Made by a program: the position numbers and the translations under genes | Shown here: positions 18,047-36,072 of the stretch, in pieces | Position numbering within the stretch: position 1 is the first letter of the stretch | How the letters are laid out: each line of letters opens with the position of its first letter | Virus record (IMG/VR): IMGVR_UViG_3300033066_001908 | Direction: 5' to 3' (one strand) | DNA: 64,000 nucleotides | Source: a virus | Taxonomy: Duplodnaviria > Heunggongvirae > Uroviricota > Caudoviricetes | The notes under the pieces: model-generated | What the model saw: the letters and a program-made list of their open reading frames with translations, nothing else | Told to the model about the DNA's origin: nothing | The model's database searches: none

Positions 18047-18175
18047 CGGTATTGCCTCCTGGTGGGAACGCTACCCGACGATCAAAGACGGAGGCAAGAG
18101 GGATCCTGGAATTTTTTCTCGCAGTCCTGCGATGCTGTAGTGAAAACAGGGGTATTTTCCTTACAGCATGCTGCA

Positions 18176-18586: not shown

Positions 18587-18629
18587 GATTCACCGCCCTA
18601 CCAGGTATCAAAATGATCAGGTAGCTCGG

Positions 18630-19393: not shown

Positions 19394-19402
19394 GGCGCTC
19401 TC

Positions 19403-19792
19403 CTAAATGGCGGCGAACAATGCCACCGCGCGTTGCAACAACCGGAGATGCTCAATACGCAGCCGCATCTTCTTGGAAGGCGGCCCACTGACCATCAGCC
19501 AGTCCCAGAATTTTTTATGATACCAACTGAGGATCTTACGCTCAGCTTCGTCAAACTCTTTCAAATAGGCCCGCTTGCCACGCCCGCTTTTGGCGTGGTG
19601 CCAGCACTCAGCCAGAATTCTCCACTGCACCATTCGTTCGAAGAGCGGCATGGTGATGTAGATATGGACCTCGACCGGCGCATCGTTGAGCTGGTCGAGG
19701 TCTTCTGTTTCATCGATTTGGATCGCCTGGGTCTTCAACATTGATACCGTTCTCGCCGAATGAATTGATTTCGTGCGTGAAGTCCGCGACAC
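19403..19792 (-). CDS. Hypothetical protein (129 aa)
   Basis: ORF. Confidence 0.45.
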   Translation of the reverse strand: MSRTSRTKSIHSARTVSMLKTQAIQIDETEDLDQLNDAPVEVHIYITMPLFERMVQWRILAECWHHAKSGRGKRAYLKEFDEAERKILSWYHKKFWDWLMVSGPPSKKMRLRIEHLRLLQRAVALFAAI

Positions 19793-20549
19793 CGGTCACC
19801 TCATAGAGCACGTGCGTGCCTGCATGAAGACCAACCGGCCGCATGGTCACCTCAGTCATAATCAGTGTTTCTCCACCGATGGCATCTTCAACGAAGTCCT
19901 CCAGGCTGGTGAACTCGTTATTTTCATCCATTCGAGAGATCGGCACAGGGACCGCCACACGGATCCGATGCTTTTCGTCCCGAAGTGCCCTGATTTGTTC
20001 TTCCGTCTGCTCAGCCGTAATGATTGGATAGTCCAGCACTGGCATTGCCGGTGCTGACTCAACAAACACGACTTCCTTTTCAGGCGGCATCACGACACCC
20101 AACCAGGGCCAGTCGTACTCCAGCACATTTGACTTCGCTTCTTCACACTCGTCCGGATCCACATCCGCCAAATGTTCCAGATAGTCGTCCATCCCCTGGC
20201 TAGGTTCAAAGAACACGTGCGGCAGGTGATGTTGTACGCCTTCTTCACCAGGGCACATGCTTGCGGTCTGGGCGCCGCGTAACAGCGACATTAGCTCACG
20301 AGATCGCAACCGATAGGCTTCAACGTACTCGCCCAATTCTCGTTTGACCTCGTCGGTCACTGGTTCAACCGCGTTGTAGCCCAGCGCCTTCTGGAAGTAT
20401 GTGTCGCCAAATTCGTCCAACATGTCGATCACCGCCTGTAACGGCGCTGCCATTGGAGTCAGAATACTCCTGCGCATCTCGATCGCAATATTGCCGTGAT
20501 CAACTTCCAGTTCTTCCACTTCCTCATTCGTCGTGTTCTTGTCGTTCAT
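19710..20549 (-). CDS. Hypothetical acidic protein (279 aa)
   Basis: ORF. Confidence 0.5.
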   Translation of the reverse strand: MNDKNTTNEEVEELEVDHGNIAIEMRRSILTPMAAPLQAVIDMLDEFGDTYFQKALGYNAVEPVTDEVKRELGEYVEAYRLRSRELMSLLRGAQTASMCPGEEGVQHHLPHVFFEPSQGMDDYLEHLADVDPDECEEAKSNVLEYDWPWLGVVMPPEKEVVFVESAPAMPVLDYPIITAEQTEEQIRALRDEKHRIRVAVPVPISRMDENNEFTSLEDFVEDAIGGETLIMTEVTMRPVGLHAGTHVLYEVTGVADFTHEINSFGENGINVEDPGDPNR

Positions 20550-20655
20550 GCAAATGCCAACCTATATGCCAGTGTTGTGCCCGTATACGTTGAACCTGGC
20601 CACCCGGCCCGTTCTGATTAGAGTAGCCACCCTCGTACGGGCAGGCGCTTGTCGG

Positions 20656-20675
20656 AAGCCCGGCTGCCCGGGCTG
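20656..20675. terminator. GC-rich hairpin, AGCCCGG...CCGGGCT family
   Basis: AGCCCGG-CTGC-CCGGGCT. The same hairpin family is seen at 30077 and 56744. The plus strand downstream is CCCTTCATTTC. Confidence 0.3.
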
Positions 20676-20684
20676 CGTATCCCT

Positions 20685-21104
20685 TCATTTCGATGGCGTG
20701 CATGAGACTTGCCCAGCTTTTGCGGCGGCTCGCGCGGCTTTTGCTCTTGTGGCTATCTCGCCTTTGTCCCATCCTGCCCCCAATGCTCGGGTGATACCCG
20801 CTTTGTGTAGTTCGACCGCCCGGCAGCCGGCCAGAGTCGCGTGGAAATACTGATCACGCCCCTCATTGAGCACCGACCCTTTAGTCACAAGCCCGAGCTT
20901 CTCCATCTCGAGCATGTCACCATGGTCTTTGGATCCAATACCGGCACAGAAGTGGTTGCGATACCCCTTCTGCTTTTTCTTCCGGTCAAATCCCGCACCG
21001 AGCATGTGCCGTAAGTGGTCGTAGTAAACCGGTTTTGCGCCTGGTACTGTGGTCATTTTCTTGTTTTGCTCCATTTTCCCGTTCCGGATTGTTTCCAGAA
21101 ACAT
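20685..21104 (-). CDS. Hypothetical protein (139 aa)
   Basis: ORF. Confidence 0.45.
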   Translation of the reverse strand: MFLETIRNGKMEQNKKMTTVPGAKPVYYDHLRHMLGAGFDRKKKQKGYRNHFCAGIGSKDHGDMLEMEKLGLVTKGSVLNEGRDQYFHATLAGCRAVELHKAGITRALGAGWDKGEIATRAKAARAAAKAGQVSCTPSK

Positions 21105-21166
21105 GCACTTTACACGTTTCCATGAAAAACATAAATATGGTTACTTTTGGAAACAAGGAAGTAGCC

Positions 21167-21604
21167 ATGCCGTGGTCAATCTATCAAATCGAATGCCTGG
21201 AAACTGGACAGATCTATATCGGGCAAACCAAGTACCGCATGCCGTTCAGCCGCTTGGCTGATCACGTATCGACGTTACGAAACCAGAAGAGTCCACACCC
21301 AAAACTTCAACAAGTTTGGAATGAATACCCAACTCTGGTCTTCTGGCAATTCCGCGTGTTAGATGATGAAATCGAATCCCAACGTACGGCAGACCGTCGC
21401 GAAGCCTATTTCACACTGCAAGTTCCTGAAGACAAGCGCCTGAATGAAGTCTCACGTGTGCGGTCAACTGTTGAGAAATATCTTGAAGTTGAACAACTAT
21501 GTGCTCAAGGCCTGCTTTACCGTGAAGTTAGTCAACGTACGGGTGTCTCGCTGGGACAGATCTCTAAGATTCGGAAAAAGGTTCGAGACGGTCTTTTTGA
21601 ATGA
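21167..21604 (+). CDS. GIY-YIG endonuclease with C-terminal HTH
   Basis: Start at ATG 21167 with an AGGAAG SD. SIYQIECLETGQIYIGQTK...R...H is the GIY-YIG core. C-terminal LYREVSQRTGVSLGQISKIRKK is HTH-like. Confidence 0.65.
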   Translation: MPWSIYQIECLETGQIYIGQTKYRMPFSRLADHVSTLRNQKSPHPKLQQVWNEYPTLVFWQFRVLDDEIESQRTADRREAYFTLQVPEDKRLNEVSRVRSTVEKYLEVEQLCAQGLLYREVSQRTGVSLGQISKIRKKVRDGLFE

Positions 21605-22246
21605 CGGCAGCCACCCAACGACATTCAAACGCACCACAGTACGCTGACACGGCCGCGGAATCTCGAAAGATTCATGCAGCATGGTCATTGCGCTGCCCGC
21701 ATACACAGAGCCGGGCCACATTGGCACAGCAATCAAATTGCCCATGTCCAGGTTGTCGAACGAACCATCTTTGTTCGGCAACGCGTTATACGTTCCATTG
21801 TAGGCCATCGCGCCAAATACACTGGAAGCCAACAGGAGACTTTGACGCCAGGGCTTTCGGCCGGGGATCTGATCATCATCCCCGATGTCTGGATCGACCT
21901 CTGGTGCTTCAGTTTCTTCTGGTTCCTGCTCTGGCCTATCGCGGTGGCGACCAGGTCGTGTTGTCCTATGCTCCCCGTGCATCTTCTCATCAGCGAGCCA
22001 GATGCCATCAATGTGGATGCCTGGTCGTCGATGCGACTGACCAGCAGGCACAACGGCCTGATCAACCATCAGATAGATCGAATGCTCGGTGTTAATCCCA
22101 TAGAGCATTTGGTCGACTGTTGGTTGCCACCGGGCCAGGTCGGATGGCAGCCCGTCTGCTTGTTTGAACTCTCGCATGTAGATCCGTTCGCCGGTAAATT
22201 CCGGGAATTCGACCTCACCACGCTCTTGGACATAGCTTGTCCGCAC
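21497..22246 (-). CDS. Hypothetical protein (249 aa)
   Basis: ORF. Its 3' end overlaps the convergent GIY-YIG gene by about 108 nt. Confidence 0.4.
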   Translation of the reverse strand: MRTSYVQERGEVEFPEFTGERIYMREFKQADGLPSDLARWQPTVDQMLYGINTEHSIYLMVDQAVVPAGQSHRRPGIHIDGIWLADEKMHGEHRTTRPGRHRDRPEQEPEETEAPEVDPDIGDDDQIPGRKPWRQSLLLASSVFGAMAYNGTYNALPNKDGSFDNLDMGNLIAVPMWPGSVYAGSAMTMLHESFEIPRPCQRTVVRLNVVGWLPSFKKTVSNLFPNLRDLSQRDTRTLTNFTVKQALST

Positions 22247-22254
22247 GTGACCTC

Positions 22255-22584
22255 CTACTTATTAACGGGGATCTTCTCGCCACACTCGGGACACATGACC
22301 TGGTGTGGTCGTGCAATCTTGAGACCGAGTTGGTTCATAATGAAAATTGTATGAAAGGCCTCGCCGTCAGGCGACCCCTTAGCAAACTCAACGGCGACCC
22401 GCTTGATTGTGTCAAGCAGGTCGACATCTGAGAGTTTTCGCCAATTCTCTTTTAATACAACCAGCGTAGCAGCTGGCGAGAGACTGGTGAGATCGATCAT
22501 TGGAGGATCGTCGTACCCAGCGGAACAACCCCGCCGGTCGGGAACTTCAAGAAGCGCCGCGCGCGGGACTCGGGAATGTCCCAT
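22255..22584 (-). CDS. Hypothetical protein
   Basis: ORF with a C-terminal CPECGEK zinc-ribbon-like pair. Confidence 0.35.
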   Translation of the reverse strand: MGHSRVPRAALLEVPDRRGCSAGYDDPPMIDLTSLSPAATLVVLKENWRKLSDVDLLDTIKRVAVEFAKGSPDGEAFHTIFIMNQLGLKIARPHQVMCPECGEKIPVNK

Positions 22585-23306
22585 TCGACAGCGATCAAGC
22601 CGTCAGTATTCCCAGGGGCTCCGGTAACCGCTGCTGCTACTGCGTTGATAACACCCATCGCGCTGACAGTGAAGCCAGCTTGAGGCGGCGCCAACACCTG
22701 CACGGTCGGATGGTCAGCCAGGGTCTGATTACAAGGCACCCGAATCCCAAACAACATCGAGATTGCCGCTGGGTCAGCTGCGAGCGCAGAGTTCAAAGCG
22801 TCGATGATCAGACCCACCAACGCTGGTGATTGCTCAGGACAGGTCTTCGCCTCTTCGAGCTGGACACTCTCGTATGGTTGCACGCCATCCGCGCCACAAC
22901 GACCGCATACCGAAGACTGAACCGCGGGCAGAATCTCGTTCCAGCGCTCACCGCAGGTCGAGCAACAGAACTTGAGTTGATACCCAGTAACGATCGGCAT
23001 GACCTCTCGCAGTTCACCTGTTGCGAAGAACTCGCTCACAGGCGTCGGCGGGATGTTGCTAATCCCCTCGTCTTCTTCAAGGATGGAATCGGGGATCGTG
23101 AAGCACCCGGGGCCATCGCCAAACGGGTTCACGAACTCGACTTCCATTGCGTCTGGTACACCGTCCTGATGCGGATACACATGGACGATCGTCCCGATCT
23201 CACCTGGCTGCAGAACTTTCGTGCTGCCAGTGTCCGCCTCCGGACAAAACTCTGCCTTCAGGCGAACAACCTTCAATTCATCAATGCGCTGGTTCGTAGG
23301 GGTCAT
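22497..23306 (-). CDS. Hypothetical protein (269 aa), Cys-rich central region
   Basis: ORF with a central CCSTCGERW...CGRCGADG. Confidence 0.45.
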   Translation of the reverse strand: MTPTNQRIDELKVVRLKAEFCPEADTGSTKVLQPGEIGTIVHVYPHQDGVPDAMEVEFVNPFGDGPGCFTIPDSILEEDEGISNIPPTPVSEFFATGELREVMPIVTGYQLKFCCSTCGERWNEILPAVQSSVCGRCGADGVQPYESVQLEEAKTCPEQSPALVGLIIDALNSALAADPAAISMLFGIRVPCNQTLADHPTVQVLAPPQAGFTVSAMGVINAVAAAVTGAPGNTDGLIAVEWDIPESRARRFLKFPTGGVVPLGTTILQ

Positions 23307-23401
23307 GCTGTCCTCTCAATAACATCAAAATGGCGTCGGCGTCCTCCGGTTGGCTGTCCCGATCCAGTGATTCAGAACGCCCGTAAACTTCCACAGTCCA
23401 G

Positions 23402-23798
23402 TCAGTACCATTCGGAGAGATACGACAAAAACCCGCTCCACGCACGGGATGCCTGCTCGCGGAATGAAGACTTGCCACATCCCTGTGCGTGATCTTGTTC
23501 TGTTTCGGAAACAGGATCGCCACTGGTGGCCCGTCCGGCTGATTGTTCGTCCCCCGGATACTGGGATGGACAATGATGTACTTCAGATCCAGCATTTGCA
23601 ATCTCCAGAGCAAGTTTCGTCGCACAGCCGCGACAGAAACATTTTTGTGGTTGGTTCAGTTCAATGGACTTATGCCACTGTCGAAAAGGAACGAGGCGCT
23701 TGCCGCACTTGTAACAGTACCGAACGTGGATCGGGACACCGACATTGATGAACCCGGCCGCGACAAGTCGTCGTTCAATTTCTGTAACTGGCATCATC
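23402..23798 (-). CDS. Zinc-ribbon protein (hypothetical)
   Basis: Start taken at MMPVTEIE with a perfect AGGAGG SD. Contains CYKCGK...CFCRGC pairs. Confidence 0.45.
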
Positions 23799-24192
23799 GC
23801 CTCCTGCCTTGTATCGCTTGGATCAACTCCGAGCGGGGTTCTGGGTTGTCGGCGTTCCAGGCCTGGATGGCCCTCAATCGCGTGATCCCATGATACTTGA
23901 GGGCCTTCTTGCAGGCTACAGTGCATACGGCTACACAAGAGCCAGGTACGCCACTTTCAGTGTCAGAACACACTTGCGGCCGTTTGCCGCAGTGTTTGCA
24001 CTTGTTCCCCTCGTCGCGGATCTCCCGCAGCGCTGGAACCAGATCGACCAGGTCGTTCAAGATCCAGGAGTTCACCCACAGTTCGTAACTCGAACTGAAG
24101 CCAGGGTTGTCCTGAATGAAAGCTGGTCCGGACTTTATTAGCTCAAATAATTTCTTAGCACGATCCCTCTTCGTGTCCGACACCTTCGGCAT
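23794..24192 (-). CDS. Hypothetical Cys-rich protein (132 aa)
   Basis: ORF with CKHCGK...C...CVAVCTVAC. A variant of the AT-rich motif lies inside its 5' coding region. Confidence 0.4.
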   Translation of the reverse strand: MPKVSDTKRDRAKKLFELIKSGPAFIQDNPGFSSSYELWVNSWILNDLVDLVPALREIRDEGNKCKHCGKRPQVCSDTESGVPGSCVAVCTVACKKALKYHGITRLRAIQAWNADNPEPRSELIQAIQGRRR

Positions 24193-24564
24193 TGGTCACC
24201 TTGTCCTCAGGGACCAGGACGTGCTTAACGCCGTCCTGGTCAATCATGAATGTTCGGATGCGACCCATCGCAGCATAGAACTCCGGCGGGTGTTCCTCGT
24301 CGCCGTGCAGATCCCAGATCCAGGCGTGAGCCCACTCATGAATCAACCATTCGTAGAGGTTTGCGATGTTGTTCTTGAGTGAGAGTCGAATGATGAATGA
24401 CTTGCCGGAGCGCGACGTGGCGCAGTCTCCGTGCAAGTCATCCTCGTGCATGTACCGAATGTAGAACCGCTTCGTCAGCGGGAAATGTTTGATGAGGTAC
24501 GGCAGCCAGTTCTTAACCGCGGCGATCTTTTCTTCGTCGGTTTCGTACTTTTTCCGGGACATGG
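24155..24564 (-). CDS. Putative HExxH zinc metallopeptidase-like protein (SprT/DUF45-like)
   Basis: Start taken at MSRKKYETDEE. LIHEWAHAWIWDLHGDEEHPPEF contains HExxH plus downstream His/Glu candidates. Confidence 0.4.
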
Positions 24565-24800
24565 GCGATCTCCTGACGGAGTGCCGTGACGGCACGCTCG
24601 ATGATGTACCGGCCATGACGACGAGCGTCCCGGGCCGTTTCCTCGAGCATGCTATCAAAAAACGGCTGATACACCTGATGGGTCAGAATGTTCTCAGCCA
24701 TAACTCCCGGAAACCCATATTCGACAAGGTTTTTAACCCCTGCGGCGATAAGCTGTTGCCGAATCTCTGCGTCTGTTACCAACAGTTTTTTTGCAGGCAC
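24513..24800 (-). CDS. Hypothetical protein (95 aa)
   Basis: ORF. Confidence 0.3.
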   Translation of the reverse strand: MPAKKLLVTDAEIRQQLIAAGVKNLVEYGFPGVMAENILTHQVYQPFFDSMLEETARDARRHGRYIIERAVTALRQEIAHVPEKVRNRRRKDRRG

Positions 24801-24908
24801 AATTCTCCTGGAACTTTCGCGAAATTTTCGGCAGCTTTTGCCGATTCGATTGTCAGGGATAAAAACACCTGCAGATCGTGAGATCTGCAGGCATTTCTAT
24901 CCATCGGA

Positions 24909-26552
24909 TCAATCCCAGCGATCGATCTTGTAATCGGACACCAGCCCGCGCGCGGTGACACGCACGAACAGGTTCCAGTTGTCACTGCTGCTGCACATGA
25001 TCAGCCCCGCAGCATGGTCTTCCTTGAGGCCTTCCAGGGTATTAGCTCGGGAATAGGACTCAATCACGCTTCGGACGCCGTGGAACTCGTTCCGCAGCAC
25101 TGTGGGGAAGAGACACAGACTCGGACTCCTGGTCTCTTTGGCACCCTTCAGGATGAAGATCGCACGACGGCCCTGGTGTGAGCAATCGTCTTCATTTCGC
25201 CAGGCATACGGACCCAGGCAGATCGCATCAACTTCGACGTAATCACCGCCCCGCAGGGACATCTGGTACGCCGGAGCCCCCGTGGGCCACAGATACCACG
25301 ACACCGGGTTACGGAACTCTTCCGTGTCCCACTGGATAATTGGCGGCGCGGCAGGATCCACAGCAGTCACCAAAGCCCCATAGCAGGAACTGCTGTGAGG
25401 CGCCAGCACTTCGATCTTATCAGCGTTCTCAAGTGCCGTTTGGCGGAACTTGACCCACGTGATCGTCTGTGCAGGCATCTTGATGTCCTGCGGAGTCTGT
25501 GGGGTCACGCGGGCGCCCTTCGGCTTAACATCACCAAACACACCCGTACCGGTCGCCTGGGGCGATTCCCGGCCAGGCCGGGGCACCCAGAGGGCCTGGA
25601 TGTCGGACAGTCGGGCAAACCGCCGCTTGAGCGAACCAGCGGCCCCCAGCTTCTCCACGACGTTTTCCGCCTGCTTGATCGTCCCGGCAGACGGCGCCAC
25701 CTGCGGACGCTGATACTGCAACGGGTGCATCTTCTCCGCAAACCGCTTCGCGATCGCGTTGAAATCCATCCCCGCAAGAATGTCTTCCAACAAGGTGCCG
25801 ATCATCGATGACCGCGGGTGACAGAAGCCGTCCGGAGCCAGCGCGATCGCGTACCAGACCACATTGGCCCTGTGTTTACCGTCCGCAGCTTCATACAGCC
25901 GTTTCAGTTCCAGCAGCCACGTCGCTTGGCCCAGCACCTTCTCACCACAATAGAGCGCGTCCGCTTCCAGGATCTTCACAGCCTGTTCGAGCTGTGGGAT
26001 CGAGAACTCTGACAACGCCAGCATCATGTTCTTGTGGTCTTCCTTCTTGGCCGCCGCGACCTGGAAGGGAGATAGGATTGCGTGTTTGTACATCCGACCA
26101 CCCGTTGCAGGGTACCGAATGGACAGGTGATGCCACGGACCAGTGACTGGCTCGCCGCAGACGTCCTTCTCGGGAACGAACACACCCGTCACCTTGGCCT
26201 TGCGGATTGCAGTGATCAGAGCCTGGACCGGAGCACAAAGTTCAGGCGGCGCGTCTTCCATGTCCCAAAGGACCGGAGAGGCGCATCCTTCATTGTCCAA
26301 AACAACCAAACCCGCAAACCGTTCAATGAACCGGCGGCAGGCATGACAGTTGTGATGTTGTCGTCGATCTTCCGGCAACCAGGACAGGTATTTGCCCCAG
26401 AGATCTTCGACATCAGTCGTGAACATCGGCAGCGTGGCTTGTTCCGTATTGGTCATGAATCGTCGCTGCACATTCGCGAGGTACATGTCGTACTCGCGAT
26501 CACTGCCCACTGCTGCTGCCGGTTGCGCTGGGACTGTTGCTCGTCTCGCCAT
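24909..26552 (-). CDS. Large conserved-looking hypothetical protein (~547 aa from MARRATVPAQ)
   Basis: Long clean ORF with a HHNCHACRRF Cys/His cluster near the N-terminus. No family recognised. Confidence 0.5.
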   Translation of the reverse strand: MARRATVPAQPAAAVGSDREYDMYLANVQRRFMTNTEQATLPMFTTDVEDLWGKYLSWLPEDRRQHHNCHACRRFIERFAGLVVLDNEGCASPVLWDMEDAPPELCAPVQALITAIRKAKVTGVFVPEKDVCGEPVTGPWHHLSIRYPATGGRMYKHAILSPFQVAAAKKEDHKNMMLALSEFSIPQLEQAVKILEADALYCGEKVLGQATWLLELKRLYEAADGKHRANVVWYAIALAPDGFCHPRSSMIGTLLEDILAGMDFNAIAKRFAEKMHPLQYQRPQVAPSAGTIKQAENVVEKLGAAGSLKRRFARLSDIQALWVPRPGRESPQATGTGVFGDVKPKGARVTPQTPQDIKMPAQTITWVKFRQTALENADKIEVLAPHSSSCYGALVTAVDPAAPPIIQWDTEEFRNPVSWYLWPTGAPAYQMSLRGGDYVEVDAICLGPYAWRNEDDCSHQGRRAIFILKGAKETRSPSLCLFPTVLRNEFHGVRSVIESYSRANTLEGLKEDHAAGLIMCSSSDNWNLFVRVTARGLVSDYKIDRWD

Positions 26553-26943
26553 TTTGTTCTTCCTTTTTGGTGTCGGCCGTCTCGGGCCAAGGGATACAAA
26601 CAGGTTCGTGGCGCGGATCTTTGCAGACCAAGCACACAAACACGCGTCCAGTTTGGACGAACTCATTGCCTTCTTCACTACCGATCCAGCTAGTATATCC
26701 GTTCAGTTTCCAACGGAAACCAACGATCCAGCCCTTAAACTGTGGGACGTCCTTCGGACGCCACTCATATTGATGCCGGTTATTCCGCCATCGAGTGCTT
26801 TCGTCTTCACCTTCACGCGGCACATACACACGCTCCATGATCTGCGTGCATTTTACCCACTTGCCCATCACAGCCCGCTGAGCTTCGACACTCAGCGGGG
26901 CTTTCATCTTCTTCCGAATCACGGGAGCCATCAGCAGGTCCAT
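26500..26943 (-). CDS. Hypothetical protein (147 aa)
   Basis: ORF with a CLVCKDPRHEPVC pair. Confidence 0.4.
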   Translation of the reverse strand: MDLLMAPVIRKKMKAPLSVEAQRAVMGKWVKCTQIMERVYVPREGEDESTRWRNNRHQYEWRPKDVPQFKGWIVGFRWKLNGYTSWIGSEEGNEFVQTGRVFVCLVCKDPRHEPVCIPWPETADTKKEEQNGETSNSPSATGSSSGQ

Positions 26944-27416
26944 TCGTCCGTGTCGATTTCGACAGCCTTCCAGCCTGGTCGGACGAAGACCTTCTTGCCG
27001 TCCGCTGTCTCCAGGCGATGTGTACCCGAAGCCCGCACTTCAAGGCGAACCACGTTCTCGTAGGTCAAGTTGCCTTCACCTTCCGGGTACACGTAGGTAC
27101 GTGACCGTTCAGGCGGATTCAACTCAGTCCAGTTAATCCCAGGGCCAGGGCTCGTCAGCTCTCGGATGACAAGCTGGTTGCCATCGTGGAGGTGATACTC
27201 CGTCGTCTGTCCGGGGCCAAGCAGGCGTTCCGGCGCCGCCGCTTTGCTTTGTTCGATGACTCGAACGCTGTGGCTGTTCTCTTGGCCGGGTTGAGAGTCG
27301 TTGCGGATAATGACACGTGTAGTCATGGCTTTCCTTTCTGGGGAGTTGTTGAACAGAATCGCACGTCGGACTCGGACCGACACCTTCAGGCGACACTGAT
27401 GGTCACTCAAGCCCAT
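26931..27416 (-). CDS. Hypothetical protein (start maybe MTTRVIIRND at 27326)
   Basis: ORF. Confidence 0.4.
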   Translation of the reverse strand: MGLSDHQCRLKVSVRVRRAILFNNSPERKAMTTRVIIRNDSQPGQENSHSVRVIEQSKAAAPERLLGPGQTTEYHLHDGNQLVIRELTSPGPGINWTELNPPERSRTYVYPEGEGNLTYENVVRLEVRASGTHRLETADGKKVFVRPGWKAVEIDTDEWTC

Positions 27417-27807
27417 TGACGTCGTTGGTCCTGTTGTGCCCGCGGCCGGGAATTCCCAGCCCTTACACCACTGCGATTACCAGAACAGTTCTGGATGTCA
27501 GCCTAATACCCTAAGCTGGGTCAGCTTCTTTATGTGCCACTCCTGGGAGGGCTGCGCCTACGAAAGCGGCGCCTTTCAAAATTAGCTGGTGGGATCGGGA
27601 TGATCAGTGCCCGTCCTTGTGGGTGGGCAGCTTTAACTACCATAGCTCGATCGTAGTTGCACCGGTCGACGGCTCCGTGGTGCGAACTGAGGTTTATCTA
27701 CCGGAGCCCAAGAGGTCATGCGCGAGTGCAGGTTCGACGGCTCAGCTGTGATCAAGAGCCTCCACCACAAACCGCAAAAGATCACTTCAAACATTCAGTT
27801 TTCCAGT

Positions 27808-28197
27808 TTACGAGTGAACGACATGCGTCTGTCTTTTACTCGGGTCCGCGCCTTCGACTTGATCGAAGGCGGCCTCGAAAGCTGTCTCTGTGAACACGTG
27901 CAGGCTACCATCGTGCAGTTCGACAATCCAGTCACCCGGACAGACGACTTGAACACCCTGCGGACCTTTCAACAAACCCAACACGGCCCAGTCCCAGTAT
28001 GGCTCCTGTTTGGAACAACCGGACGTGCCAAGCAACTCCGCGATCTCACCGTAACTGGTACGTTGAACCGCTGAGTGATCGTGGCAAGCTGCTGTCAGTT
28101 TAGGTCGGACACACGGCTTTCCTGGTGCCGTGTTATCCATGCGCGGAACATTCCAACGCGTGGCCTTCACGTAGGAGTTCTTCAGTCGATAGATCAT
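27808..28197 (-). CDS. AP2-domain-like DNA-binding protein; possible HNH/AP2-type homing endonuclease remnant
   Basis: C-terminal GDWIVELHDGSLHVFTETAFEAAFDQ fits the AP2 pattern GkWvAeI...lGtFdTaEEAArAYD. The N-terminal part contains CHDHS. It is flanked by a 390-nt non-coding gap. Confidence 0.35.
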   Translation of the reverse strand: MIYRLKNSYVKATRWNVPRMDNTAPGKPCVRPKLTAACHDHSAVQRTSYGEIAELLGTSGCSKQEPYWDWAVLGLLKGPQGVQVVCPGDWIVELHDGSLHVFTETAFEAAFDQVEGADPSKRQTHVVHS

Positions 28198-28208
28198 GAC
28201 GACCTGTT

Positions 28209-28607
28209 CTAGCTTGTGGGTTTTTCCCGCGGGCCATAACCAAAGTCCCGCAACTTACCGCACAGCGTGCGGAGCGCAATCCCGAGAGCGCGACTCATCT
28301 CGGTGCGGTTGCCTTTGTAGCGGTTGTACGCGATCAGAATCAACTCGCGTTCCATTTTCTTCACGTCGAGATCCACCGGTTGAACCGGCACACGATCATT
28401 CCACTTCACCAACGCGGCATCCGGAGTATCACCGGACACGTGTGGGTTTACCTGGCAATTCACATTCACACAAGCAACCGCCTGCCCACCTGGCGTGTCA
28501 GCCAATTGCGGACGAATTACCGGTTGTGAACCGCACCAGGGGCACGGAAATGCTTGTGCGATAGGAAGTAATGGCAGATTTTCAGTGGTCATGTGCGCAG
28601 ATTCCAT
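28209..28607 (-). CDS. Zinc-ribbon plus Fis-type HTH DNA-binding protein
   Basis: N-terminal CPWCGS...C...C and C-terminal ILIAYNRYKGNRTEMSRALGIALRTLCGKLRDFG, a Fis-family HTH. Confidence 0.5.
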   Translation of the reverse strand: MESAHMTTENLPLLPIAQAFPCPWCGSQPVIRPQLADTPGGQAVACVNVNCQVNPHVSGDTPDAALVKWNDRVPVQPVDLDVKKMERELILIAYNRYKGNRTEMSRALGIALRTLCGKLRDFGYGPREKPTS

Positions 28608-28650
28608 TCTGGGTTGTGGGCGGTATCCTTACCATCCATACGCACGTACT

Positions 28651-28905
28651 CTAACTGCTGGTCTCCGGAGCGACAAGATTATTAGTGGCAAGGGCTTGCT
28701 GCTTCTCTCGCTCCATTTTCTCCAAGACATCTTGCACGAAAACCAGCAGACCGCCCGGCACGAACACCGGCTTGGTGTTGGCCGCCCGCACGGCAGCCTC
28801 TAACAGCGCCGGCAACCAGGTTGTCGGCGAATCCAAGATCGCCTGACGCAACGGCTCAAAACTAAGTAGCCGCTCGTCGGTCGCATTCGTATTGTCCGTC
28901 GACAT
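28651..28905 (-). CDS. Hypothetical protein (84 aa)
   Basis: ORF. Confidence 0.35.
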   Translation of the reverse strand: MSTDNTNATDERLLSFEPLRQAILDSPTTWLPALLEAAVRAANTKPVFVPGGLLVFVQDVLEKMEREKQQALATNNLVAPETSS

Positions 28906-29455
28906 ACGGTCCTCTCGCTTTCACCAGGCGACCCTTGTCTTCCTCAACCTCTTCCAAGGTGGAATACCGATAGGGTCGATTGCGTTCATTGTCGGCCACG
29001 CGGCCATGCGGCATCTCGAGTGCCCAGGGGCCTTTATAATTCTCCGCTCGCGGTGCGTTGAGTGCCGCCAACGGCATGCAGTTCACTGTGCAGGCCTCAT
29101 ACGGGATCGCGAAGTACCCGTCACCCAGGTCATGACGATGCACGATCATCTTGACCTCCGGCCTGCCGTATTTCTGCTCTTCACCCAGAAACTCAGTGAG
29201 CTTGATGATCAACTCTTGAACTTCGTCCCGATCGAGCAGCGCACAGACATGGTAGTCATTCCGATGCTCCTCCGCTGGGATGAAACTGATCTCCACACCA
29301 TCGGCGAATGGGTCACCGCGGTTGCTGTATCGGATCTCGACCTTATCGCCTTCGCGATCGCTGAATGCTAAAGGCTTCACTTTGCGATTCACTTGCACTT
29401 TCAAAATACCCCTTCGCGCGCCGATATGCTGTGATGTAACCCAGCATCCAGGCAC
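28862..29455 (-). CDS. Hypothetical protein
   Basis: ORF. Start uncertain. Confidence 0.4.
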   Translation of the reverse strand: MPGCWVTSQHIGARRGILKVQVNRKVKPLAFSDREGDKVEIRYSNRGDPFADGVEISFIPAEEHRNDYHVCALLDRDEVQELIIKLTEFLGEEQKYGRPEVKMIVHRHDLGDGYFAIPYEACTVNCMPLAALNAPRAENYKGPWALEMPHGRVADNERNRPYRYSTLEEVEEDKGRLVKARGPYVDGQYECDRRAAT

Positions 29456-29792
29456 TCGCCTCTTTATTCCGGCTCCAAGGCCAGCGCCCAGAGTCCACCA
29501 TCACGGTTCCGTCGCCAACCGAACACCAGATAGTATTCAGGTTGACGTGAAACACGAGCGCCATGTTCTCATGATCCAACTCCACCTTATGGCAGGTGGT
29601 CAGTGTCATGTGTCTGCCCGTACGGTACTTCTCCGTTTTGATCGTGATCCGTTCCGCTTCCAACGTCGCAGCCAGCTTTTGTTGCCGCTCGTAGGGCACG
29701 TGCATGAGCATTTTGTCCTGCCTTAATACCGGCCAGCAGGCCGTAAAAGAATGCCAGCACCATCCGAGCGGGCACCATGGTCGTACCCTCAC
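29343..29792 (-). CDS. Hypothetical protein
   Basis: ORF overlapping its neighbours. Start maybe MLMHVPYE. Confidence 0.3.
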   Translation of the reverse strand: MRVRPWCPLGWCWHSFTACWPVLRQDKMLMHVPYERQQKLAATLEAERITIKTEKYRTGRHMTLTTCHKVELDHENMALVFHVNLNTIWCSVGDGTVMVDSGRWPWSRNKEASAWMLGYITAYRRAKGYFESASESQSEAFSIQRSRRR

Positions 29793-30078
29793 CTTCCTCG
29801 GACTCGAAATTGATCACCTGGTACTCGATGCCACCAATCCCGACACAGACACGATATGCGTACTGGAAAGTGTGAACGCGACGAAACCAGACTCGCTTAC
29901 TCCGTGTGATCTCATACTCGTCAACAACCCAGTCTTCCTGGGTCAGCTTTCTCGCGTCAGCCAACAGGCTGTTAATCTCAGCGTGATTTGTCGGCGGTCG
30001 CTCGTCCGGCGACCGATAGGTTGTCATTGGCATATCGTCCCAGCCTCCGGTAATTGGCGGTCCCACGTTAATCTCCAA
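29587..30078 (-). CDS. Hypothetical protein
   Basis: ORF. Probable start MPMTTYRS. Confidence 0.35.
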   Translation of the reverse strand: MEINVGPPITGGWDDMPMTTYRSPDERPPTNHAEINSLLADARKLTQEDWVVDEYEITRSKRVWFRRVHTFQYAYRVCVGIGGIEYQVINFESEEGEGTTMVPARMVLAFFYGLLAGIKAGQNAHARALRAATKAGCDVGSGTDHDQNGEVPYGQTHDTDHLP

Positions 30079-30098
30079 ATGAAGAGAGCCCGGCTTCG
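30077..30098 (-). terminator. GC-rich hairpin terminator (GAGCCCGGC-TTCG-GCCGGGCTC)
   Basis: Perfect 9-bp stem. The minus strand downstream is TCTTCATTT. Same hairpin family as 20656 and 56744. Confidence 0.4.
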
Positions 30099-30119
30099 GC
30101 CGGGCTCATTTGCGATAGA

Positions 30120-30161
30120 CAACCAAAAATGGTTGTTTCCGTGTAAACAACCAAAAATGGT
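30120..30161. repeat. Two copies of the palindromic 14-mer AACCAAAAATGGTT
   Basis: AACCAAAAATGGTT at about 30120 and about 30148, each a perfect AACCA/TGGTT inverted repeat. They lie between a gene stop and the hairpin. Confidence 0.4.
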
Positions 30162-30165
30162 TATC

Positions 30166-30708
30166 TCAGCGGTTGTAGCCCTGCCCAACGTAACCGTACC
30201 CGATGTACGGGTTTGTCCAGTTGCTGGGGCCGTAGCCACTGTAATACTGGTTCCCGATGTAACTGTACCCGCCGTACCCGGCATTCGGCCAGTAGTAGCC
30301 AAAGCCGCCACCCTCGCCCAAGCCATAGCGATTCTGCAGGTAGTAGGCCTGGTTGTTTCCAAGTTGCTGCCGGGCCAACCTACCTTGAAATTTCACGAGT
30401 TCAGCTTGTCGTTTGTACTCACGCTCAGCGGCGTTTTTCCACATCAACTGTTGACGTTCAGCCTCGATTTCGTACTGACGCTGCTCTGGCGACATCCACA
30501 CGCCTGTTGGCCGACTGTTCCATTGCGTTCTGTTGAGAACCTTTGGCTCGGTAGACCGAATCGAATCCGGTTGCGCCAGATGGTTCGGAACGCCAAACTG
30601 CTGCGCCGGCGGGTTTGGAATTGGAGCCTGTTGCGCGTAAGCCAGATTACCGAAGATCACACATGCGATCACGACGATCAAAAAGCTGCTGTAATGTTTT
30701 CTGGTCAT
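30166..30708 (-). CDS. Secreted Gly/Tyr-rich protein (signal peptide)
   Basis: Start taken at MTRKHYSSFLIVVIACVIFGNLAYA|QQAP, a signal peptide. The C-terminus is YGLGEGGGFGYYWPNAGYGGYSYIGNQYYSGYGPSNWTNPYIGYGYVGQGY. Confidence 0.5.
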   Translation of the reverse strand: MTRKHYSSFLIVVIACVIFGNLAYAQQAPIPNPPAQQFGVPNHLAQPDSIRSTEPKVLNRTQWNSRPTGVWMSPEQRQYEIEAERQQLMWKNAAEREYKRQAELVKFQGRLARQQLGNNQAYYLQNRYGLGEGGGFGYYWPNAGYGGYSYIGNQYYSGYGPSNWTNPYIGYGYVGQGYNR

Positions 30709-30745
30709 GGGTCGAATTCCTTCAAGAGTCAAAGCTGGCCTCCAC

Positions 30746-31531
30746 TCACGGCGAGTGGATGGCCTCATTGTAGCAAGGCTCGCACAACTGCGGGTGCGTC
30801 GGCCCCGAGGGCCTAGTCAAACAATTCACACAAGTAGCCCGCCATTGCTCGCTTTCATCGACACGGTGGGACCGGCCGGTCCACTCGGTCAGGAACTCCG
30901 CAAGGAATTCCTCCATGAACTTGTGCCGCGAGATGGCCATCGCGCGACCAGTATTGGTCTGCATCCTGTCCTTGAGCAAAAGCAGCTTCTCGTAGAAGTG
31001 CCCAATGCTGGACGACGTCGACACCTTGTAGGTACCGAACTTCGCTGTCATGTCCGGCTTCTCAGTCAGGTCAAACATCTTGCGATGATTGGCCCCGCCG
31101 AAAGCAAAGCATCGACCGATCCCAATGGCGCCCATCGCATCGAGGCGATCGGCGTCCATCACACACTTGCCTTCCAAACCAACCGGCTTGTCGTCCTGAC
31201 CAGGCCCTTTGTAAGAAATCGACTCGCAGATGTCTGAAATGAAGTCGATGTCCTTCCGGGACAGGCTGTTCGTCAGGTAGTGCCCATTCATGGCCAACCA
31301 CCCGGTGACCATCAGAGGTCCGTCCGTGTGGTTCTTGTGGAACTTGTAATCCCCGATGTCATGCAGCAACGCTGCCAGTTCCACAATGTCCAACCTGGCT
31401 CCTTCCGCTTCGGCGATCTGCAACGCGTTCCTGCGTACCCGATCGGTGTGATCCCAATCGTGTGCGCTGTCCTTGTCCGCGAAAAACTTCTTCGCGAACT
31501 CTTCCAACTTCGGTACCAACCAGTGTGCCAT
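30746..31531 (-). CDS. HD-domain phosphohydrolase with C-terminal zinc ribbon
   Basis: HDWDHTDRV...LLHDIGD...DADRLDAMGAIG matches the HD superfamily H..HD...D pattern. C-terminal CVNC...CEPC. Confidence 0.65.
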   Translation of the reverse strand: MAHWLVPKLEEFAKKFFADKDSAHDWDHTDRVRRNALQIAEAEGARLDIVELAALLHDIGDYKFHKNHTDGPLMVTGWLAMNGHYLTNSLSRKDIDFISDICESISYKGPGQDDKPVGLEGKCVMDADRLDAMGAIGIGRCFAFGGANHRKMFDLTEKPDMTAKFGTYKVSTSSSIGHFYEKLLLLKDRMQTNTGRAMAISRHKFMEEFLAEFLTEWTGRSHRVDESEQWRATCVNCLTRPSGPTHPQLCEPCYNEAIHSP

Positions 31532-31582
31532 GTGATGTCCTCATAAGAGCTAACAGCTAACCCACATGTATACTTGACGCAT

Positions 31583-32341
31583 TTACGTCGTTGCTTTAGG
31601 CAAGCTGGCTCGCCAGGCTTCGAAGATCGCGAGATTGGCTTCCATAAACGGCCGGAAGGCTGCCATCGCGGCCTTGGCTTCTTCAGCCGTAATCGTGAAC
31701 TTGCAATCGGGACAACACCAGCCTTCGTAGACAGCAGTGTCATAAACCGTGTCGGATGGATTCAATGCACCACACTTCGGACAGTTGCCATCATGCAGCG
31801 CCCGCACAACCCGATGCAACGCACGCGCCGTATCCGGAGCCAGCGACACGTCACTGTTAAGTGGCACAGGACCAATACCCAGCTCAGAAAAAATCTTCCC
31901 GTCTTCCTCGTCCATGATTTCCTGAATTGGATGCACGTGAGGTTTATGCGGAATCGCCGTGGACTCCAACAACTGCCGATACTTCTCGCCTGTTTCGGCC
32001 CTGAGCCACGGCATCAGTTGTGCGATCTTGTGTGACAGGCAAGTTGTGTTGACGCAGTCCGAAACATACTCGCGCCCACCTTCAGTTCGCACGATCGATC
32101 GCGCGGTACCACACAACAGACATGTCCCGGCCGGCGCCTGGTCAAACTTCGTTGCCAACGCCGAAAGCAACGTCCGATGTGCATCAAACTGCTCGCGAAG
32201 GGTGTCGTAATCCGGACAACGCATGTACTTGTTACACGCTCCATCGCCGTTGGCCCCCACATACCGCACCGGTTTCCCACAACCACAAACGTTGCCGGTC
32301 TGCGTAATGGCTGGCCCCGGTGCCTGAACTGCTTGATTCAT
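31583..32341 (-). CDS. Cys-rich hypothetical protein (252 aa)
   Basis: ORF with many CxxC pairs (CGCGK, CLLCG, CPKCG, CPDCK). Confidence 0.45.
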   Translation of the reverse strand: MNQAVQAPGPAITQTGNVCGCGKPVRYVGANGDGACNKYMRCPDYDTLREQFDAHRTLLSALATKFDQAPAGTCLLCGTARSIVRTEGGREYVSDCVNTTCLSHKIAQLMPWLRAETGEKYRQLLESTAIPHKPHVHPIQEIMDEEDGKIFSELGIGPVPLNSDVSLAPDTARALHRVVRALHDGNCPKCGALNPSDTVYDTAVYEGWCCPDCKFTITAEEAKAAMAAFRPFMEANLAIFEAWRASLPKATT

Positions 32342-32367
32342 TGATTTTCTCCGTTAAACTCGAACAC

Positions 32368-33579
32368 ATGAACACAATCCTGCAAGCCTACGCACGCTAC
32401 TGCAACTTTCAACGTCCACCGGTCAACCCGATACGGGCCGTACAGGCTGAACGTTGGCTGGCCGGTGCGCTGCTGTTCGAGTTTCCGAACAGCATGGAGC
32501 AGTATACGAAACTGACACAGGACATGCTGAAGATCCGTGCCGAGGTCATTGGTAGCATAGACCCTGAGGGATTTCAACAATTCCGCACTTCAGGCACGAT
32601 GTCAGGGACACCGCGCACGTACCGCTTCGGCCCGAACGCGCAGCGTTGGATTGGTACAGTCTGGCAGCACTTCACCCGCGTGTTCAACCCGCGCACGATC
32701 GTTCGTCTGCGATTGAATGGCCTCAATGACAATGAGCTGACCTGTGAACGAAATAACGAAGGTCTGTACCAGTACGAAGCCCGCTGCGGAGTCTTGAACA
32801 AACAACGCACGGAAGCCTTAGTGATCATGCTGAGCGAAATGCTGATCGCACATCCACAGTTGACCTTGTACACGACACCAGACGCTTACCTGTACTTGAA
32901 TCAACATCTCGGCTTCAAATACTTCGCACTGCTGAACAAGGACAAAGTCAACTACCTGTCCGGACTGTGGGAGCCGTTCTTCAAACGTGACGAGCTTCGG
33001 GCAAACGGCGTTTGGTTTGGCAACATCATGATCGACTGGACAACAGGTGTGAACTTTTTCACCTGCTCTGCCAGCAAACAACACACACTTCCGATCTTCG
33101 CGTTGACCGACCAGGGGCCAACCAACCTGTTGAACCTGGCGCCAGATCAACCACAAAATGCCAGCGACAGGGAAACCTTCACCGCATTAAATGTCGTGAA
33201 GTGCGCATGCGGACAGTACCGCCTGGCCTTCAAGCATCTACCACATCCAGAAAGCGCGATGCGTCAGTTGGACGGCACGCCCGTCTACGATCCAGGCCTT
33301 GTGGAAAAACTTCGAGGACACTACCGGCACATGCAGTTCCGGCAATCCGGAAACGTAGTCACCATCGGGCATCTGACCGAAGATGGCTCGTTTCCGGACA
33401 AGGACATGCTGACCGATTACTTTCAAACACGCGGCTTCGAAGTCAACTACGAGATCTCCACCGCACCGTTTGTCTGCGGCAAGCGACCCGTCTTTCTCAA
33501 GACGACAGCTTCCGTTGAATCAGCTCCAGGTACCTTGGTGTTGCCGGACCAGTCAACAAGTCCCGTGGTTGTCCGATAG
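32368..33579 (+). CDS. Putative adenylate-forming enzyme-like protein (ANL/PaaK/GH3-like)
   Basis: Start taken at MNTILQAYAR. FRTSGTMSGTPRTY loosely resembles the (S/T)SGTTGxPK AMP-binding motif. Weak call. Confidence 0.3.
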   Translation: MNTILQAYARYCNFQRPPVNPIRAVQAERWLAGALLFEFPNSMEQYTKLTQDMLKIRAEVIGSIDPEGFQQFRTSGTMSGTPRTYRFGPNAQRWIGTVWQHFTRVFNPRTIVRLRLNGLNDNELTCERNNEGLYQYEARCGVLNKQRTEALVIMLSEMLIAHPQLTLYTTPDAYLYLNQHLGFKYFALLNKDKVNYLSGLWEPFFKRDELRANGVWFGNIMIDWTTGVNFFTCSASKQHTLPIFALTDQGPTNLLNLAPDQPQNASDRETFTALNVVKCACGQYRLAFKHLPHPESAMRQLDGTPVYDPGLVEKLRGHYRHMQFRQSGNVVTIGHLTEDGSFPDKDMLTDYFQTRGFEVNYEISTAPFVCGKRPVFLKTTASVESAPGTLVLPDQSTSPVVVR

Positions 33580-34507
33580 GCGCTGTTGAGAAGCCTCGCG
33601 ACAGAATGTCCAACTCCTTGTACAACGCGCGCGCCGAAGCCACATGGGTAATTGCCCGCCGTAGATCTGTATTCGGCTCAGCGATTGGTGTGATGTACTC
33701 AGAAAAACTAATTGCCGGCACACCTACCACAGCGGCCTCGTATAGGGCTAATGAATCACAACCAATCACGACAGAGCAGGTTGCCAGATCGTGGCCGATC
33801 TGCGCTGTACCCGATCGGACGTGTGCCCGGCGGCCTGCATCTGGCCTTGCGGCGATCTCCCGCAACCATGTCTCGATGTTAGATCGCAAGTCACGCGGAT
33901 GTTTGCGAATGGCCAGATGGGCACCCAAGTTTGTCTCCATGTATTTGAACAGCAGGTGCGCTACGCCGTAGGTCTGCTCAGTTGCCTGATCGGCCAGCAG
34001 CATCACGAACTCACCAGAGCCCTTGTACTTCCACCCGTCCATCCAGTCGAAGCAAGGCGAGCCGAGAATGTAAATGCGGTTGGCGTTCACTCCGAGTGTC
34101 TGCAGGACGTGCTCACCACGTGAAGAAGCCACGATGTAATCTTCCTCTGGCTCGTTTATCAGAAAACCTAACGTGGCCGGTTCCTTGAACTCGGTCATGA
34201 CCGGAATGTAGTTTAACCGCGGAATGTTGGACGCTTTGAAGGCCTGCAGGGTTGCCCTGGCATTTGGCCCGTCGACCGCGATCAAACCAAAATCAGGATG
34301 GAATTGTTCCAAGATCTGCAGCACACCACGTAACCAACCAGAGCCCGGCAGGATGTAATAAGTTCGGACCATGTCAGGATACGGTCGCGCGCAACCTTCG
34401 GGTACGAGTAGTCGAACGTCATGCCCGGCCCTCGACAATTGCTCGTAAAGCGGCAAAAATGTTTGCATCTCGCCGGGATAGAACCCGGTCATCAGGATTT
34501 TCGACAT
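33497..34507 (-). CDS. Putative GT-B fold glycosyltransferase-like protein
   Basis: N-terminal KILMTGFYPGEMQTFLPLYEQLSRAGHDVRLL and C-terminal DLATCSVVIGCDSLALYEAAVVGVPAISF resemble the GT-B N- and C-domain signatures (MurG/UDP-glycosyltransferase-like). Confidence 0.4.
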   Translation of the reverse strand: MSKILMTGFYPGEMQTFLPLYEQLSRAGHDVRLLVPEGCARPYPDMVRTYYILPGSGWLRGVLQILEQFHPDFGLIAVDGPNARATLQAFKASNIPRLNYIPVMTEFKEPATLGFLINEPEEDYIVASSRGEHVLQTLGVNANRIYILGSPCFDWMDGWKYKGSGEFVMLLADQATEQTYGVAHLLFKYMETNLGAHLAIRKHPRDLRSNIETWLREIAARPDAGRRAHVRSGTAQIGHDLATCSVVIGCDSLALYEAAVVGVPAISFSEYITPIAEPNTDLRRAITHVASARALYKELDILSRGFSTAPIGQPRDLLTGPATPRYLELIQRKLSS

Positions 34508-34528
34508 TCAAGACTCCAAGGGACTGAC

Positions 34529-35308
34529 ATGATTCCACACATCGCGCACTTCATTTGGTTGTACGAGGATCCGCCGGACTGGGTGAATCAAAACATTGCT
34601 CAGTTTAGGAAGCATCACCCGCACTGGACAACGGTCCTGTGGCGTAACACCCCGGCTGACTTTCCAGGCGACCTGCAAAACTTAATGCGCGAGTTGCCTT
34701 TCTTGTCCAGCAAGTCAGATATCCTGCGATACTGGCTTTTGGAAAAGTACGGCGGCATCTACTTCGACTGTGACAACTTTGTGCTCAAGAGCTTTGAACC
34801 GTTGTGCGAACACGCATTCTTCACGGCACCATACTACGAACGGTTCATTGCCTGCGGATTGATGGGCAGCGAACCACACTCGTATCCGGCACAAAAGATC
34901 GTCGCAATGTGCCGGTTGTTGGCTGGTGAAAATCCTGTCCAACGTGACAGGAAGACTTTCGGTCCCGACCTGCTGACCCCATTGTGTTACGGGCTGCGGG
35001 ATTGCACGCTGTTGCCGCAGCATTACTTCTACACGTTGCCAACCCGGCCCGACGCACAGACTTTCTGGCTTTCCAATCAGGCCGGCCGCGATATCATCAT
35101 GGACCGAATTAAAGACCGGTTTGTGGATGGTGTCACGCCGTACTCAGTTCACCTGTGGGGCGTCAACGAATCCAGCACACGTCGCGAAGAAAGCCTGCCC
35201 GATGATGCGCGTGATTGTATCGTTCAAAGATGCTTCCCCCTGGTTAGCACGATGTCTGGACAGCTTATTGACTCAGACGTACCAGTCCTGGACATGCCAC
35301 GTCGCTGA
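34529..35308 (+). CDS. GT32-family glycosyltransferase (Gly_transf_sug, DXD motif region)
   Basis: MIPHIAHFIW...SDILRYWLLEKYGGIYFDCD is the hallmark of the PF04488 sugar-binding region. There is an AAGGGA SD. The 3' end overlaps the next GT2 gene by 107 nt. Confidence 0.65.
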   Translation: MIPHIAHFIWLYEDPPDWVNQNIAQFRKHHPHWTTVLWRNTPADFPGDLQNLMRELPFLSSKSDILRYWLLEKYGGIYFDCDNFVLKSFEPLCEHAFFTAPYYERFIACGLMGSEPHSYPAQKIVAMCRLLAGENPVQRDRKTFGPDLLTPLCYGLRDCTLLPQHYFYTLPTRPDAQTFWLSNQAGRDIIMDRIKDRFVDGVTPYSVHLWGVNESSTRREESLPDDARDCIVQRCFPLVSTMSGQLIDSDVPVLDMPRR

Positions 35309-35924
35309 CGACTGCTCGACGGACAACTCGCTTGACATAATCTATGACACGATTAAACGTGATCGTCGATTTTATGTCAGTCAGAACTCGATGCGGCTCT
35401 TCCAGTTAGGGACGTACCAACGCCTTTTGACTGACACAACATGGCATAAGAATGACATTGTTGTGTCAGTCGACGGCGACGACTGGTTGCCGGATCCTGG
35501 CGTCCTGCAGCGTGTGGCTGACGCCTACGCCGATGGAAAGACCTGGATCACGTACGGAAGCCACAAACGCTCCAACGGCCGCAAACTCATCACAGAGCCC
35601 CTGGAAGACGCCACAAAGATCCGCCAGGAAGCCTGGAAGACTTCCCACCTGCGAACCTGGAAGGTCGGCCTGTGGCGTCGGATCCGCCCAGAATCGCTCC
35701 TGGGACCAGATGGTCAGACGTTCCGGTGTGCCGGCGACGTCGCCTGGATGTTCCCCATGATCGAAATGGCAGGGAACGAGCACTCGAAGCACCTGCCTGA
35801 GTGCAATTACGTGTACAACGTCGACAATCCCACCAGGTGCGGCAACACACGGCGGGAAGAACAGTTCGCCAACGCGCGATGGCTCCGTAAGCAGGAGCCA
35901 TACGCGCAGTTGGAAAAGCTCTAA
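35202..35924 (+). CDS. GT2-family glycosyltransferase
   Basis: MMRVIVSFKDASPWLARCLDSLLTQTYQSWTCHVADDCSTDNS and VSVDGDDWL (DxD) form a classic GT2 N-terminal signature. Confidence 0.65.
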   Translation: MMRVIVSFKDASPWLARCLDSLLTQTYQSWTCHVADDCSTDNSLDIIYDTIKRDRRFYVSQNSMRLFQLGTYQRLLTDTTWHKNDIVVSVDGDDWLPDPGVLQRVADAYADGKTWITYGSHKRSNGRKLITEPLEDATKIRQEAWKTSHLRTWKVGLWRRIRPESLLGPDGQTFRCAGDVAWMFPMIEMAGNEHSKHLPECNYVYNVDNPTRCGNTRREEQFANARWLRKQEPYAQLEKL

Positions 35925-36072
35925 TCGTGCGGTGGAATCAACTCCACTGTCTCGCCCGTCCACAGTGAATAAATCACCATGTAGGCAAGATACCCCAGCG
36001 GAATCGCATACACGGCACAGATCGCAACAGCAACCTGGCAACCAAAACCCGGGTATGGGTACTCTTTCTCGC

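Follow-up and report, generated by a model that had tools for sequence, protein, structure and literature searches.

A 481-nt ORF-poor gap and a candidate small ORF between two gene blocks of a poorly annotated phage-like genome

The described systems closest to the locus reported here are the spacers and unannotated small ORFs in the variable regions of tailed phages, the large phage-associated RNAs GOLLD and ROOL together with the group I and II introns, and the HNH-AP2 homing endonucleases of phages. The likeness to variable-region spacers lies in the position of the gap between co-directional blocks of small, coupled genes and in the differing gene content at this site among relatives, and the likeness to unannotated small ORFs in a candidate ORF with a Shine-Dalgarno-like site that was missed by gene callers; the gap differs from typical phage spacers in being long, in not being AT-rich, and in having no recognisable sigma-70 promoter or intrinsic terminator. 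As with GOLLD, ROOL and the introns, there are a few hundred non-coding nucleotides in a phage with a GC content like that of the surrounding genes, but the gap has no covariance-model match (E ≤ 10), no excess folding, no adjacent tRNA and no interrupted gene. The comparison with the homing endonucleases concerns the 129-aa protein encoded beside the gap, which is small, phage-encoded, and combines a short helix with a strand-rich core; there the resemblance ends, and the protein differs from the endonucleases in having no AP2 or HNH match in Pfam, in its motifs (LGTSGCS, PYWDW and CPGDWI), and in its weak structural neighbours, which are Tudor/SH3-like.

Genome context and extent of the gap

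The window, the whole 64,000-nt stretch of DNA that was analysed (IMG/VR record IMGVR_UViG_3300033066_001908), comes from a metagenomic contig of 84 kb, Logan SRR32380195_7381; a JGI sample also contains a copy of this contig (~83.9 kb). Nearly all of the genes are on the minus strand. The contig is phage-like and encodes Lar-like/HTH_8, PGDYG-related and DUF8224/phrog_1735 proteins, and for the majority of its large proteins neither Pfam nor PHROGs gives a match; a search of GenBank phages at the DNA level found none. When 13 large proteins of the window were scanned against Pfam and/or PHROGs, matches were obtained for only four, namely a methyltransferase domain, a PhyH-like dioxygenase, a GtrB-like protein and a phrog_200 lipoprotein. 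The whole contig is exceptionally poorly annotated, as is the lineage to which it belongs. The gap and the genes needed to describe its surroundings are as follows.

24909–26552, minus strand: DUF8224/phrog_1735 gene, encoding a 547-aa protein
26931–27326, minus strand: downstream gene, 131 aa, with an ATG start at 27326 preceded by AAGGAA
27327–27807: ORF-poor gap of 481 nt, left empty by the gene calls on the source contig
27808–28197, minus strand: upstream gene, 129 aa, a PGDYG-related phage hypothetical protein
28209–28607, minus strand: Lar-like/HTH_8 gene, two genes upstream of the gap (Pfam HTH_8, E = 1.6e-6; Lar_restr_allev, E = 1.9e-6; PHROG 599)

An earlier note on this DNA had described a region of about 390 nt without a credible ORF. 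The gap is real and no frame across it has coding signal, but the length given was too short: because the downstream gene starts at 27326 and not at 27416, the gap extends from 27327 to 27807 and is 481 nt long. The longer form of the downstream ORF, starting at 27416, was rejected, with the start at 27326 backed both by gene callers on the source contig and by a homologue (P0008) that is 68% identical and has the same MTTRV beginning; the gap boundaries therefore rest on two independent gene calls and one homologue. The GC content of the gap is about 0.55, the same as that of coding DNA, and varies between 0.535 and 0.585 across it.

The gap divides two blocks of closely coupled minus-strand genes. 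The upstream block includes the Lar/HTH_8 gene followed by the PGDYG-like gene, with 11 nt between these two, and the downstream block begins with the 131-aa gene and a 143-aa gene, which overlap each other, and continues to the DUF8224 gene. The genome had also been called otherwise tightly packed, which is only roughly true: the gap is the longest ORF-poor stretch nearby, but a comparable one of ~577 nt, with no long minus-strand ORF, is present at 17599–18175, where ORFs reach at most 85 aa on the minus strand and 118 aa on the plus. Inside this second stretch is a strong, GC-rich 14-bp hairpin, ACGAGGCCCCTGGT...GGGGGCCTCGT, on the minus strand at 17669–17638. A clean hairpin resembling an intrinsic terminator, GAGCCCGGCCGAAGCCGGGCTC, followed by a T-rich tail, is located between minus-strand genes at 30086–30107 (minus strand), and shows that canonical terminators are used elsewhere in the genome.

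The neighbouring genes have unusual features of their own. The 132-aa product of the gene at 28209–28607 has a Lar-like zinc ribbon (restriction alleviation) fused to a Fis-type HTH_8 domain, an unusual fusion whose pairing is also present in a close relative (see below), and its product may serve as a DNA-binding regulator or as an anti-restriction factor. The DUF8224/phrog_1735 protein has 42 relatives sharing 34–57% identity on IMG/VR contigs of up to ~245 kb, and none of these 42 loci has any other neighbouring gene in common with the window; it appears to be a conserved gene in highly variable surroundings.

The PGDYG-like neighbour and the variability of the locus

The ORF immediately upstream of the gap had been thought to carry an AP2-like motif of the kind found in HNH-AP2 homing endonucleases, an assignment that we abandon. 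In Pfam searches with hmmscan the 129-aa protein matches no family at E ≤ 0.1, and still none at E ≤ 1, and the AP2 family (PF00847) is not matched by any of six members of the protein's family at E ≤ 1. Neither HNH nor any other nuclease domain is found in it in Pfam or PHROGs, and there is no sequence match in the PDB. Three of the six aligned family members instead match PF14083 (PGDYG; best E = 4.8e-6), although the window protein itself does not at E ≤ 1. The motifs LGTSGCS, W..W and CPGDWI are invariant throughout the family, and PYWDW is also among its motifs. By sequence, the 129-aa protein is assigned to a phage hypothetical-protein family related to Pfam PGDYG. Using tblastn, members were found in Ralstonia phages Gervaise and Darius, Aeromonas phage 65 and Delftia phage PhiW-14, where they are always annotated as hypothetical; in Darius the gene is one of a closely packed series of small genes, and no gap adjoins it. 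A literature search on 'PGDYG' found no papers. An AlphaFold model of the protein (pLDDT 79) has no PDB match below E = 0.19, and its weak top fold neighbours are Tudor/SH3-like barrels, not AP2 domains.

Searches with both flanking proteins turned up a single close relative, a 5712-nt contig of ENA assembly ERZ1426824. Its gene order is an HTH_8 gene (134 aa), the homologue of the 129-aa protein (60% identity), an uncalled gap of 471 nt at 837–1307, a 108-aa gene, and the homologue of the 131-aa protein (68% identity), with the length and position of this gap read from the gene coordinates, not from DNA. The earlier note had allowed for an ordinary protein-coding gene spanning the interval in homologous genomes, with the window's copy being a pseudogene; going by those coordinates, the relative has the uncalled gap in that place. 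The extra 108-aa gene (1308–1634) is directly upstream of the 131-aa homologue, and there is no gene the size of DUF8224 downstream. Genes have been gained and lost right beside the gap.

More distant relatives of the PGDYG-like gene (L085, L086, L042 and L129) have no gap after it and carry different genes there, so that gene content varies in this part of the genome; the distant PGDYG and DUF8224 loci are not syntenic with the window. A second genome with the gap was found neither in IMG/VR, searched with both flanking proteins, both family alignments, and the Lar/HTH_8 and DUF8224 proteins, nor in JGI metagenomes searched with the PGDYG alignment, nor in GTDB genomes searched with the 131-aa family, nor in viral and genome collections searched with exact and degenerate DNA patterns of the conserved stretch described below.

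Coding potential and the conserved upstream end of the gap

Several lines of evidence speak to the coding potential of the gap. A codon-usage log-likelihood ratio (LLR) model, for which 20 long genes of the window served as the training set, is clearly positive in the flanking genes and reaches no positive value in the gap in any of the six frames. The period-3 power of 1.37 is within the range of shuffled sequences (95th percentile, 1.72). Reading any single stop codon as sense opens no frame across the gap, and all three stop codons are used by genes here. A PHROG scan of ten stop-free segments gave no match, and nothing was returned at E ≤ 10 when the six frames were concatenated and queried against 5.8 billion protein clusters. 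A match of 28 nt to a primase gene, present in two IMG/VR loci (L110 and L104), was considered as a clue to a pseudogene and rejected as chance, as only the hexapeptide ALIIPI is shared, with no extension. These analyses show the gap to be non-coding, apart possibly from one small ORF at its upstream end. The two features at issue there are listed below.

27763–27794, minus strand: conserved stretch of 32 nt, 29 of 32 positions (91%) identical to the related scaffold L003
27633–27794, minus strand: candidate small ORF (ORF1), 53 aa, encoding MFEVIFCGLWWRLLITA followed by a Ser/Pro/Arg-rich tail; the conserved 32 nt are its start

The DNA comparison was made with L003, a 504-nt scaffold of the ERZ1426824 phage that reaches 44 nt into the gap; beyond these 44 nt the two gaps are assumed to be homologous. 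Identity averages 65% over the alignment and 64% in the PGDYG-like gene, falling to 47% at the third codon positions of that gene. The 32-nt stretch is the best window of that length in the 504-nt alignment, and an identity of 29 in 32 has a binomial P of 0.001 at p = 0.654. The comparison shows the stretch from 27794 to 27763 to be under purifying selection.

The ATG of ORF1 is kept in L003, as is the Shine-Dalgarno-type sequence upstream of it (GGA in the window and AGGA in L003), and both are intact even though the 12–13-nt spacer upstream of the ORF has diverged and contains an indel that shifts the frame with respect to that of the upstream gene; the genome commonly has sites of the Shine-Dalgarno type. 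Over the 11 codons that could be compared, ten encode the same residue, and the three substitutions are at codon positions 3, 1 and 3, such that two are synonymous third-position changes and one replaces V with L. A share of two in three at third positions is not significant, having a probability of about 0.26 by chance. The codon LLR of ORF1 is neutral, at −0.015 per codon, which ranks it within the top 9% for ORFs of its size, with real genes at +0.11 to +0.23. No homologue was found among 1.84 billion representative proteins. The tail, rich in Ser, Pro and Arg, resembles untranslated GC-rich sequence, and the N-terminus is only borderline hydrophobic. ORF1 was skipped by the gene callers on the source contig, and the gap of the relative is likewise uncalled. 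We infer that the 32-nt element is probably the start of a translated small ORF missed by gene callers.

Folding, regulatory signals and alternative readings

The gap contains a number of repeats and potential hairpins, which had been taken to suggest a structured ncRNA.

27666–27682 and 27734–27750, plus strand: direct repeat, 10 nt exact (TCGACGGCTC at 27666 and 27734) and 82% identical over 17 nt
27671–27677 and 27702–27708: inverted repeat, GGCTCCG/CGGAGCC, with a 24-nt loop
27554–27572, plus strand: hairpin GCGCC...GGCGC
27513–27527, plus strand: hairpin AAGCTG-GGT-CAGCTT, followed by the T-rich CTTTATGTG on the same strand
27448–27457: short palindrome GGGAATTCCC
27480–27494: short palindrome CCAGAACAGTTCTGG
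two copies within the gap: short palindrome TGATCA

The direct repeat, the GCGCC...GGCGC hairpin and the AAGCTG-GGT-CAGCTT hairpin with its T-rich run were all found where the earlier note had placed them, and the 7-bp stem is likewise present, although its loop is 24 nt and not 23. However, when the gap is shuffled with its dinucleotides preserved, 7.2% of the shuffles contain an exact direct repeat of at least 10 nt and 99.6% an inverted repeat of at least 7 nt. Short hairpins with arms of at least 5, 6 and 7 nt number 6, 2 and 1, compared with shuffle means of 4.4, 1.1 and 0.26 (P = 0.28, 0.29 and 0.22, respectively), and these counts are the median of all 481-nt windows of the contig, half of which have as many. 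The T-rich tail after the hairpin at 27513–27527 is on the plus strand, where there is no gene for it to terminate. These repeats and hairpins are at chance level.

Folding and database searches gave no support to the structured-ncRNA reading. The predicted minimum free energy of the minus strand is −162.6 kcal/mol, compared with −162.9 for shuffles (z = +0.05), that of the plus strand has z = +0.28, and twelve sub-windows of ~100 nt range from z = −1.18 to +1.28 (|z| < 1.3); the structure prediction that had been proposed as a check thus gives energies equal to those of shuffled sequence on both strands. The covariance-model check was similarly negative, with no Rfam match at gathering thresholds in the whole window and none even at E ≤ 10 on either strand of 27200–28000, in a search that took in group I and II introns and large phage-associated RNAs (GOLLD and ROOL). 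A search for tRNA and tmRNA genes found none.

Regulatory signals were sought on the strand of the genes. Consensus-based scans, which non-consensus or phage-specific promoters would escape, found no sigma-70-like promoter on the minus strand in the gap and no minus-strand site anywhere in 26800–28400, nor is there a sigma-54 box in the gap. Over the larger region 16000–35999, sigma-70-like matches are fewer than in shuffled sequence (6 vs 10.1). The gap contains no intrinsic-terminator-like hairpin on the minus strand, in a scan that finds the GC-rich ones at 30107–30086 and 17669–17638. It has no AT-rich segment, and its GC content is not lowered, unlike that of typical promoter regions. An analysis of 7–9-nt word enrichment across intergenic regions found no shared motif beyond chance. 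The palindromes in the gap are at chance numbers, and its five GATC sites are not an enrichment over the contig mean of 4.3 per 481 nt. As to an iteron-type origin, there is a single two-copy imperfect repeat at chance level and no AT-rich unwinding segment, and no replication or packaging genes are located near the gap. The suggestion of a complex regulatory region is left standing by default: the gap is non-coding, lies at the junction of two gene blocks and recurs in a relative, but it carries no canonical signals.

We tentatively favour a reading in which the gap is an ordinary intergenic spacer, located where two gene blocks meet in a variable region and probably beginning with a small ORF that has escaped annotation; we give this reading somewhat less than an even chance of being correct. 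The spacer would be specific to its lineage and would lie in a block of small genes that varies in content, in a tailed-phage-like genome that is poorly characterised. Its upstream end, from 27794 downward, would most likely be an unannotated 53-codon ORF with its own ribosome-binding site, and the other ~300 nt would be untranslated DNA that, from its position, may hold a transcription start or regulatory signals for the downstream block. A point against a regulatory spacer is that 300–480 nt exceeds what such signals need. The position and near-identical length of the gap (481 nt, and 471 nt by gene coordinates) recur in two phages whose synonymous sites are near saturation, and this speaks for the competing proposal that the ~480-nt spacer is a lineage-specific functional element, either an ncRNA or a cis site, with the 32 nt being part of that element and not the start of a small ORF. 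We consider this proposal unlikely.

The particular forms that have to be weighed differ in what they explain. A DNA-level cis site, whether an array of operators for the Lar/HTH_8 protein, an origin or a packaging signal, would suit the nearby gene for a DNA-binding-type protein, the several short palindromes of the gap (among them GGGAATTCCC, CCAGAACAGTTCTGG and the two TGATCA copies) and the conservation of the 32-nt stretch, and yet palindromes and hairpins are at chance counts and GATC is not enriched, there is no iteron array because the gap has only two imperfect repeat copies, no segment is AT-rich, and replication and packaging genes are absent from the vicinity; such a site seems to us quite unlikely. 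A novel lineage-specific ncRNA or cis-acting RNA element, of which the conserved 32 nt would be the 5′ part, we regard as very unlikely, even though a relative with nearly saturated neutral sites shares the length and position of the gap, the GC content of the gap equals that of coding DNA instead of being AT-rich, and no frame has protein evidence. Set against this are the absence of any Rfam match even at E ≤ 10, fold energies like those of shuffles on both strands both globally and locally, typical hairpin counts, the lack of a promoter or terminator found flanking the gap, and the fit of the substitutions in the conserved 32 nt to codons.

Least probable of the readings considered is a decayed gene remnant, that is, either a pseudogene or a scar left by the loss of a moron (an accessory phage gene), of an intron or of a homing endonuclease. 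A GC content like that of coding DNA would agree with this, as would the variability of the locus, where the extra 108-aa gene of the relative adjoins the gap and distant relatives have different genes. However, six-frame searches found no similarity among 5.8 billion clusters (E ≤ 10), the relative's proteins included, there is no PHROG match and no period-3 signal, and neutral DNA should not hold 91% identity or the same length while third codon positions saturate. The intron or homing-endonuclease scar proposed by the earlier note fails in addition on the flanking genes, neither of which is split, both aligning end to end with their homologues, and on the lack of an intron-model match and of an HNH or AP2 domain.

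A false lead is thus removed, in that the locus has neither an AP2 homing endonuclease nor an intron scar and no structured RNA could be demonstrated in it, and the start of the 131-aa gene is corrected. Beyond this the locus is of modest value, offering a candidate small ORF missed by gene callers and a long spacer of normal GC content that seemingly persists in two diverged phages. If that persistence is true, the spacer would be a reasonable target in the search for a new phage regulatory RNA or cis element.
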